Assembly: GCF_000026545.1 (NCBI RefSeq)
Contig: NC_011601.1
Direction: 5' to 3' (one strand)
Length of the DNA stretch: 64,000 nt
Source: Escherichia coli O127:H6 str. E2348/69
GTDB taxonomy: Bacteria; Pseudomonadota; Gammaproteobacteria; Enterobacterales; Enterobacteriaceae
A model generated the notes under the pieces. It searched no databases and was not told the DNA's origin. It saw nothing but the letters and a program-made list of their open reading frames with translations. This document shows positions 58,882 through 59,178 of this stretch, in pieces; the first letter of the stretch is position 1, and every line of letters begins with the position of its first letter. Both the position numbers and the translations under genes were made by a program.

Positions 58882-59178
58882 TTAAAATTCCATCTGGGTT
58901 TGTTCAGAACGCTCGGTTGCCGCCGGGCGTTTTTTATTGGTGAGTCCATCAAGCGCATACTTAAAAGCCCTACTAATCGGACTGATGTCTGATGCCATTC
59001 CGAAAGCACACAAGACCGAAGCAATAAATCTCCAGTCCGTTCTGCTTATCTTCGATTCATGACAGCCAATCATCTTTGCCAGACCGCGCTGGGTAAGCGT
59101 TGACAGGTTGATGAGTAAATCTGTTTCTGCGCGATCAATTTCTCGCTGTGTTGGCTTGCTGTAACTTGCTTGTGTCAT
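58882..59178 (-). CDS. cII: CII-like transcriptional activator (hybrid: lambda-like C-terminus, different N-terminus)
   Basis: C-terminal LTNKKRPAATERSEQTQMEF is near-identical to lambda CII as remembered; N-terminal two-thirds differ. Confidence 0.65.
   Translation of the reverse strand: MTQASYSKPTQREIDRAETDLLINLSTLTQRGLAKMIGCHESKISRTDWRFIASVLCAFGMASDISPISRAFKYALDGLTNKKRPAATERSEQTQMEF

Follow-up and report, generated by a model that had tools for sequence, protein, structure and literature searches.

CII-family proteins act as transcription activators for the establishment of lysogeny. In lambda, the 77-nt OOP RNA overlaps cII by 52-55 nt, and the layout cII-oop-orf-O-P is kept in more than 20 lambdoid phages (PMC5869508, PMC3349717). 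In PMC5869508, with reference to Kobiler 2002, lambda CII is described as carrying an FtsH degradation tag in its ~16 C-terminal residues and as still active when shortened to CII 1-81. A conserved 33-nt block covering the oop 5' end and pO has also been described (PMC3349717). According to the same source, the place that follows oop is a variable slot, which is occupied by orf48 in P22, by gp53 in HK97 and HK022 and by nothing in lambda, and a lambda imm21 hybrid departs from lambda within the cII/oop overlap. A similar CII was treated in the epsilon34 genome paper, which concluded that its target is unchanged, as is that of P22 C1 (PMC2629481).

Here, a cII gene of this family is described from a lambdoid prophage of Escherichia coli O127:H6 str. 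E2348/69. It is located in a stretch of 64,000 nt that was analysed as a whole (the window), and all positions refer to this stretch unless stated otherwise. To judge from sequence comparison, the gene is an ordinary, widespread and annotated allele that was already known. It is very probably a normal, functional-looking gene of a lambdoid prophage, composed of a body segment and a tail segment that assort independently, and the lambda identity of its tail is attributed to exchange in the lambdoid gene pool rather than to a special chimaera.

The cII gene and its identity break relative to lambda

The gene (58882..59178, minus strand) is an ORF encoding a 98-aa protein, MTQASYSKPTQREIDRAETDLLINLSTLTQRGLAKMIGCHESKISRTDWRFIASVLCAFGMASDISPISRAFKYALDGLTNKKRPAATERSEQTQMEF, the C-terminal end of which is LTNKKRPAATERSEQTQMEF. 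Residues 1-92 match positions 1-91 of the 91-position Pfam profile Phage_CII (PF05269) with 123 bits (E=5.9e-36), the curated cut-off of this profile being 21.3 bits, and the protein also matches PHROG 191 (E=2e-37). In a phmmer search against PDB, residues 12-98 aligned with residues 8-97 of the lambda CII chain 1xwr_A (E=2e-9). An earlier note on this DNA, made from the sequence without database searches, had regarded the N-terminal region as unrelated to that of lambda CII; the extent of the Phage_CII and 1xwr matches is incompatible with this view. RefSeq names the product of 58882-59178 in E2348/69 'CII family transcriptional regulator' (WP_012578960.1), and an NCBIfam search returned no match for cII or for the adjoining small ORF, orf90.

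The gene occupies the position typical of the CII family, from cro/nutR to the replication genes. In particular, cI (59618-60331), a lambda-identical cro (59317-59517), cII, orf90, the gene for an O-like replication initiator (57637..58584, minus strand; Pfam Phage_rep_O, phrog_345) and the gene for a DnaB-type helicase (56264-57640; Pfam DnaB_C) follow one another on a single strand, and a gene for CIII, the FtsH inhibitor, is annotated in the same prophage (RefSeq). The lack of an annotated integrase beside xis-like torI at the prophage left end, together with residue T94, at which the protein departs from the common tail, might suggest that cII is a decaying, nonfunctional remnant in a defective prophage. 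However, the ORF is of full length and intact, as are the operator, the terminator and the neighbouring genes for CIII, Cro, CI, O and DnaB, and it is 98-99% identical to the genes of the viable phages Kapi1 and APC_JM3.2. Such decay is very improbable, and a cII pseudogene was rejected because an intact full-length ORF lies among intact surrounding genes; the gene is taken below to be a normal one.

Within cII, identity to lambda is distributed unevenly. With lambda CII from NC_001416/J02459 as the reference, BLASTP gave 43% identity over 88 aa, with a cluster of 19/20 identities in the last 20 residues, and the codon-aligned nucleotides are 44% identical up to residue 77 and 90% identical from residue 78 to residue 98; the helix-turn-helix region of the protein is only about 30-40% identical to that of lambda. 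When the 50-64 kb part of the window was compared with lambda 27-45 kb by blastn, the 3' end of the gene appeared as an isolated 59-nt island (58886-58944, corresponding to lambda 38649-38591; 96.6% identity), which comprises the tail codons from L79 onward, that is, the cII/oop overlap, and both flanks of which are unalignable to lambda. The unalignable sequence extends over 358 nt between the island and the lambda-like cI-OR-cro block (59303-60327, lambda 37231-38255; 98%) and over 2.6 kb beyond the island. The intragenic break in identity is genuine and far beyond chance, and the mosaic junction relative to lambda lies at about codon 78/79 of cII. The body on the other side of this junction (residues 1-78; 58945..59178, minus strand) is the 21/HK022/Stx-phage allele, helix-turn-helix included. 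Junctions within genes are already known as part of lambdoid mosaicism. The earlier note was right in assigning the last ~20 residues to lambda CII and in stating that the remainder differs, and likewise in describing cI-OR-cro and OL as lambda-like, the OL area being represented by a patch at 61140-61426 with 88.5% identity to lambda (blastn).

As regards immunity, the lambda-like parts are only the cI-OR-cro block and the OL-area patch, and the prophage is 'imm lambda' in the narrow sense only. The N gene (61636-62019, PF25694) has no blastn match to lambda and hence is not lambda's N. Beside the lambda cro, the nutR boxB (59265-59277, minus strand) reads CGCTGACAAAGCG, which we take to be of the P22 / H-19B type; this would fit a non-lambda N gene. 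For annotators, it follows that a lambda-like cI/cro says nothing about the adjoining N, nut, cII or replication modules. Directly downstream of cI, in the place of lambda's rexA/rexB, two overlapping ORFs are found on the plus strand (60339-60776 and 60763-61134; 145 and 123 aa), which belong to phrog_5893 and phrog_6136, respectively, both without assigned function. Neither ORF has a Pfam match above the curated cut-off, and PADLOC gave a weak CorA-like match (E=0.004) for the 123-aa ORF; the two are candidates for a prophage-encoded exclusion function.

Operator sites and promoter specificity

A tetrad repeat of the CII-binding type, TTGCTGTAACTTGC, lies at the pRE position (59156..59169, plus strand), antisense to cII and inside its codons 4-8. 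A candidate -10 element of pRE, TAATAT (59183..59188, plus strand), is found 13 nt past the second TTGC. The same spacing is seen in lambda pRE (AAGTAT), paQ (TAGTAT) and pI (TGTACT), all of which were recovered by the same repeat search. Moreover, TTG(C/T)-N6-TTG(C/T) occurs at an identical offset from the cII ATG in 10/10 phages, whichever allele they carry, with an unchanged 13-nt distance to a TAnnnT -10 element, and pE is annotated at the homologous place in the HK75 and HK022 records. A further, paQ-like site (53097..53129, plus strand) runs antisense in the gene for a Q-family antiterminator (52904-53422, minus strand; PF06530) and consists of TTGCGTGGCTTTGC (53097-53110), a 13-nt spacer and TAGGAT; only 0.02 chance sites are expected at this position and in this orientation. 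The window holds 9 TTGC-N6-TTGC sites against 5.4 expected, an overall count that is not above chance, and the operator argument is built on position and spacing rather than on site counts; the remaining seven sites are without a TAnnnT element at 13 nt. A promoter scan of 58400-59700 found only pR and flagged neither pRE nor a putative pO, which in the case of pRE is expected of an activator-dependent promoter without a -35.

It is most likely that the cII protein still recognises TTGC-N6-TTGC and activates pRE and the paQ-like promoter as lambda CII does. Its S-x-I-S-R motif aligns with that of lambda CII, and K-[IV]-S-R is nearly invariant across family alignments. The earlier note had considered that promoter specificity could be changed; the protein would then be a functionally novel chimaeric CII, in which a new DNA-binding domain would serve different promoters, and the divergence of the helix-turn-helix from that of lambda is what speaks for this idea. 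Against it, TTGC-N6-TTGC is kept at pRE in every allele compared and recurs antisense in Q with identical spacing, the aligned S-x-I-S-R motif hardly varies in the family, the allele is widespread and old, and the published conclusion for P22 C1 and epsilon34 gp48 is that they have the same target (PMC2629481). We consider a change of promoter specificity extremely unlikely, and altered operator specificity was rejected because the position and spacing of the repeat are kept; recognition of the lambda-type operator remains the preferred reading.

The cognate repeats that the earlier note suggested seeking upstream of cI and int were found at the former place (the pRE site at 59156-59169) and not near the int end: no TTGY-N6-TTGY equivalent of pI and no annotated int are present at the prophage left end of E2348/69, int being outside the window. 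The pI equivalent is missing or lost, which reflects the prophage end rather than the CII protein. This left end (E2348/69 chromosome 1543000-1553500, beyond the right end of the window) carries xis-like torI and no annotated integrase. It borders on a DUF4942 fragment and the sucrose (csc) genes, and the prophage may be defective in integration or excision. At the other side of the replication genes, between Q and the lysis genes, RefSeq annotates an HNH-endonuclease-like ORF (52197-52709, minus strand) followed by tRNA-Asn and tRNA-Thr.

The cII tail and the antisense terminator

In the proposed explanation, the first about 78 codons, an allele of 21, HK022/HK75 and most Stx phages, hold the helix-turn-helix and the oligomerisation core, and the last about 20 codons, the lambda/434/P22-type tail, are dual-coded. 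Read on the cII strand, the tail would specify a flexible C-terminal tag, by which CII is marked for proteolysis by FtsH in lambda. Read on the other strand, the tail would supply the 3' part of an oop-type antisense RNA, including the Rho-independent terminator. By analogy with lambda, the cII protein would be targeted to FtsH through its lambda-type tail. Since CII 1-81 is active in lambda and the tag comprises the last ~16 residues, the junction at codon 78/79 is very close to a domain boundary.

An intrinsic terminator antisense to cII, the t_oop homologue, is located at 58906..58938 (plus strand), where a hairpin (58906-58933) is followed by a T-run. The terminator scan gave 12 pairs, a 4-nt loop and a T-rich tail for this hairpin, after which TTTTTTATT follows, and the hairpin is also present in the MFE fold. 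In the phage 434 record, oop RNA is annotated opposite the last 54 nt of cII, which are homologous to the island. Across 12 distinct tail variants, the 9-bp hairpin core is paired in 98% of cells, and compensatory changes occur in three core pairs (C-G/U-A/G-C, G-C/C-G and G-C/U-A). The observed covariation was reached by 0/500 shuffles, and slid controls collapsed to 30-58% paired. Moreover, a conserved U-G pair on the plus strand corresponds to a C-A mismatch on the cII strand, which points to a structure selected on the oop strand.

Codons 84 and 90 (residues 83 and 89 in lambda) contribute to opposite arms of the oop terminator stem, in which they pair through their first two bases, and residues 84 and 90 covary because of this pairing. 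The pairs found at these residues, whose codons are reverse complements of each other, are R-R (lambda type), S-D (HK022 type; S-D/E), A-A (phiEt88 type), P-G, T-V and C-H. With a flexible anchor, pairing-compatible residues were present in 74/81 full-length CII family members, compared with 40.7 +/- 3.3 in the shuffle control (maximum 54), in which 0/2000 shuffles reached the observed value. A stricter fixed-anchor count, which undercounts because of indels, gave 55/81 against 20.2 +/- 3.5 in the shuffled set. It is thus probable that the CII tag is constrained by the oop terminator, as the covariation suggests, and that the orf90 module would give a shorter oop with its promoter over a different gene. 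A narrow literature search returned no description of this codon-pair covariation in the CII tail, which is the only mildly new item of the analysis; it would illustrate how the 3' end of a gene is co-shaped by the terminator of an antisense RNA and how this becomes visible as amino-acid covariation in a protease tag.

An oop-like RNA is predicted to be transcribed in the E2348/69 prophage. The putative antisense RNA (58871..58938, plus strand), the 5' end of which was set by the distance from the -10, would be about 67 nt long, given a spacer that falls about 10 nt short of lambda's. It resembles lambda OOP in position and terminator. Its predicted 5' hairpin is a weak fold, and the 5' domain is unlike that of lambda OOP, the 5' stem-loop of which is not kept in this type of downstream sequence. 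The candidate -10 of the oop-type promoter, read from the sequence as TATAAT (58859..58864, plus strand), overlaps the ATG of orf90; CATAAT is placed likewise over the start codon of the next gene in lambda (O), HK75 and others. The candidate combines a perfect -10 with a poor -35 and was unflagged by the promoter scan. The conserved 33-nt oop 5'/pO block, ACTGGATCaATCcACAGGAGTaATTATGaCAAA, is mostly absent: the sequence here is CAATATCCAGCGAGGTAATTATATGCGAAA, and only AATTAT(AT)G is shared. An Rfam scan of 55000-64000 at E<=1 gave no match, and no Rfam family fits the oop-like RNA.

Reassortment of bodies, tails and downstream modules

The stretch composed of cII, orf90 and the start of O is colinear, with 96-98% nucleotide identity, with TL-2011a, the P22-like coliphage Kapi1 and dozens of Stx2a-converting phages. 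In tblastn searches with the cII protein, identity was 99% in APC_JM3.2, 94% in DE3 (lambda imm21, so that the match is phage 21's cII) and 80-90% in 228 phage records, HK75/HK022, VT1-Sakai, VT2-Sakai and BP-4795 among them. The supposition that the gene has no known colinear allele in another phage is contradicted by these alignments, in which the whole gene is colinear at 96-99% with TL-2011a, Kapi1, APC_JM3.2 and Stx2a phages, and on the same ground a unique chimaera was rejected. A 1034-nt cro-cII-orf90 query (58587-59620) was matched in part by 1959/5426 complete E. coli genomes; all three elements, lambda cro, this cII allele and orf90, were found together in 16/5426.

Body and tail were compared separately at the nucleotide level in ten phages, with the window as the reference. 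The lambda-type tail was found on three body types: on the window type in Kapi1 (body 98%, tail 98%) and TL-2011a (96% and 95%), on the lambda/434 type (44% and 90% in lambda, 43% and 92% in 434) and on the body of the P22-like g341c (49% and 84%). Conversely, the window-type body is joined to the 21-type tail RPVCKTERSEQ in DE3 (imm21; body 98%, tail 86%) and to the HK022-type tail SPAATEDFKQIDMQF in HK75 (97% and 70%) and VT2-Sakai (96% and 70%). DE3 is identical to lambda from inside the cII tail onward, in agreement with the departure point published for the lambda imm21 hybrid (PMC3349717).

The same is seen on a larger scale in IMG/VR, where the window-type body (89-100% identity at the amino-acid level) is present in 80 contigs with 25 tail variants. 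The commonest tail in these loci is the exact lambda tail, GLTNKKRPAATERSEQIQMEF (22 loci); the cII protein of E2348/69 departs from the common tail at residue 94, with T in place of I. In the 80 loci, tails of the lambda, 21 and HK022 types are followed by either a lambda-like downstream sequence, which begins GGTCATTACTGGATC, or one of the orf90 type, and every combination is present. As far as these alignments indicate, cII bodies and tails assort independently among lambda-like phages. The description of cII as a hybrid in the earlier note can therefore be kept for the junction with respect to lambda at codon 78/79, but not in the sense of a peculiar hybrid, since the lambda-type tail is the commonest in the 80 loci.

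It could be argued that purifying selection on the dual-coding block alone has frozen a lambda-like tail and that no recombination junction is needed. In keeping with this, the tail block is dual-coded, its hairpin is under selection and the KK.P..TE motif is near-invariant across the CII family. However, the same body can carry a tail that is only 70% identical, as in HK75 and VT2-Sakai compared with the window, which shows that the tail sequence has not been frozen. In addition, synonymous sites that lie outside the hairpin agree with lambda even in the absence of the lambda 5' pairing partner, and every combination of tail and downstream sequence exists. Selection explains the persistence of the block but not the identity pattern, and it is very unlikely to suffice. 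The preferred explanation is exchange: a tail block that is common to dissimilar phages and lies at a domain boundary suggests that homologous recombination repeatedly joins bodies, tails and replication modules. The locus may serve as a textbook illustration of mosaic junctions that coincide with the boundaries of protein domains, the homology for recombination being provided by a short shared block, here the cII/oop overlap. Its discovery value is small, since an annotated and widespread gene is concerned, which behaves as lambdoid mosaicism would lead one to expect.

Downstream of the tail, orf90 (58587..58859, minus strand; 90 aa) fills the slot of variable content that separates cII/oop from the replication initiator gene. 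The extra small ORF that had been reported between cII and O is real and conserved: it belongs to phrog_2519 (E=6.6e-57; no function assigned), is also annotated in RefSeq, and is present in Stx2a phages, Kapi1, CUS-3, JEP4 and Gally, a narrow enterobacterial distribution. Residues 55-88 bear a weak resemblance to the beginning of the Pfam domain Phage_rep_O (E=0.022), and the C-terminal 34 aa weakly match residues 26-59 of lambda O (E=5e-4); comparisons with the adjoining O-like protein and with VT2-Sakai O revealed no similarity, and PADLOC gave no match for orf90. These weak matches suggest that orf90 may be what is left of the 5' part of an O-type replication gene that was displaced. Inside the O-like gene itself, a perfect 35-nt direct repeat (58029-58063 and 58122-58156) encodes a repeated 13-residue peptide and could mark origin iterons.

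Among known systems, the cII genes of Kapi1, APC_JM3.2 and TL-2011a correspond to this one from end to end (96-99%), lambda-type tail included, and in Kapi1, TL-2011a and the Stx2a phages the gene is followed, as here, by the 90-aa ORF and an O-like gene. The E2348/69 locus differs from these phages in having T94 rather than I and in its upstream lambda cI/cro, in place of which they have other repressors. Phage 21 (DE3), HK022, HK75 and VT2-Sakai share the body (96-98% nucleotide identity over residues 1-77) and the same pRE tetrad repeat but differ in the tail, the 21 type having 3 extra nt in the terminator loop and the HK022 type compensatory stem changes in the terminator.

Lambda CII (PDB 1xwr/1zpq/8igr) belongs to the same family, is encoded at the same gene position and has the same TTGC-N6-TTGC architecture at pRE and paQ; its last 20 residues, which span the FtsH tag and the overlap with the oop terminator, are near-identical to those encoded here. 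Lambda differs past the cII stop, where the oop 5' domain and the promoter -35 are unrelated and no 90-aa ORF is interposed, and the replication genes are O and P in lambda compared with the O-like and DnaB type here. The epsilon34 gp48 protein offers a close parallel, with weak N-terminal similarity, 16/18 of the last residues equal to those of lambda CII, and TTGCN6TTGC at PRE and PaQ (PMC2629481); together with g341c CII and P22 C1, it represents a third body type, the nucleotide identity of which to that of the window is 49%.
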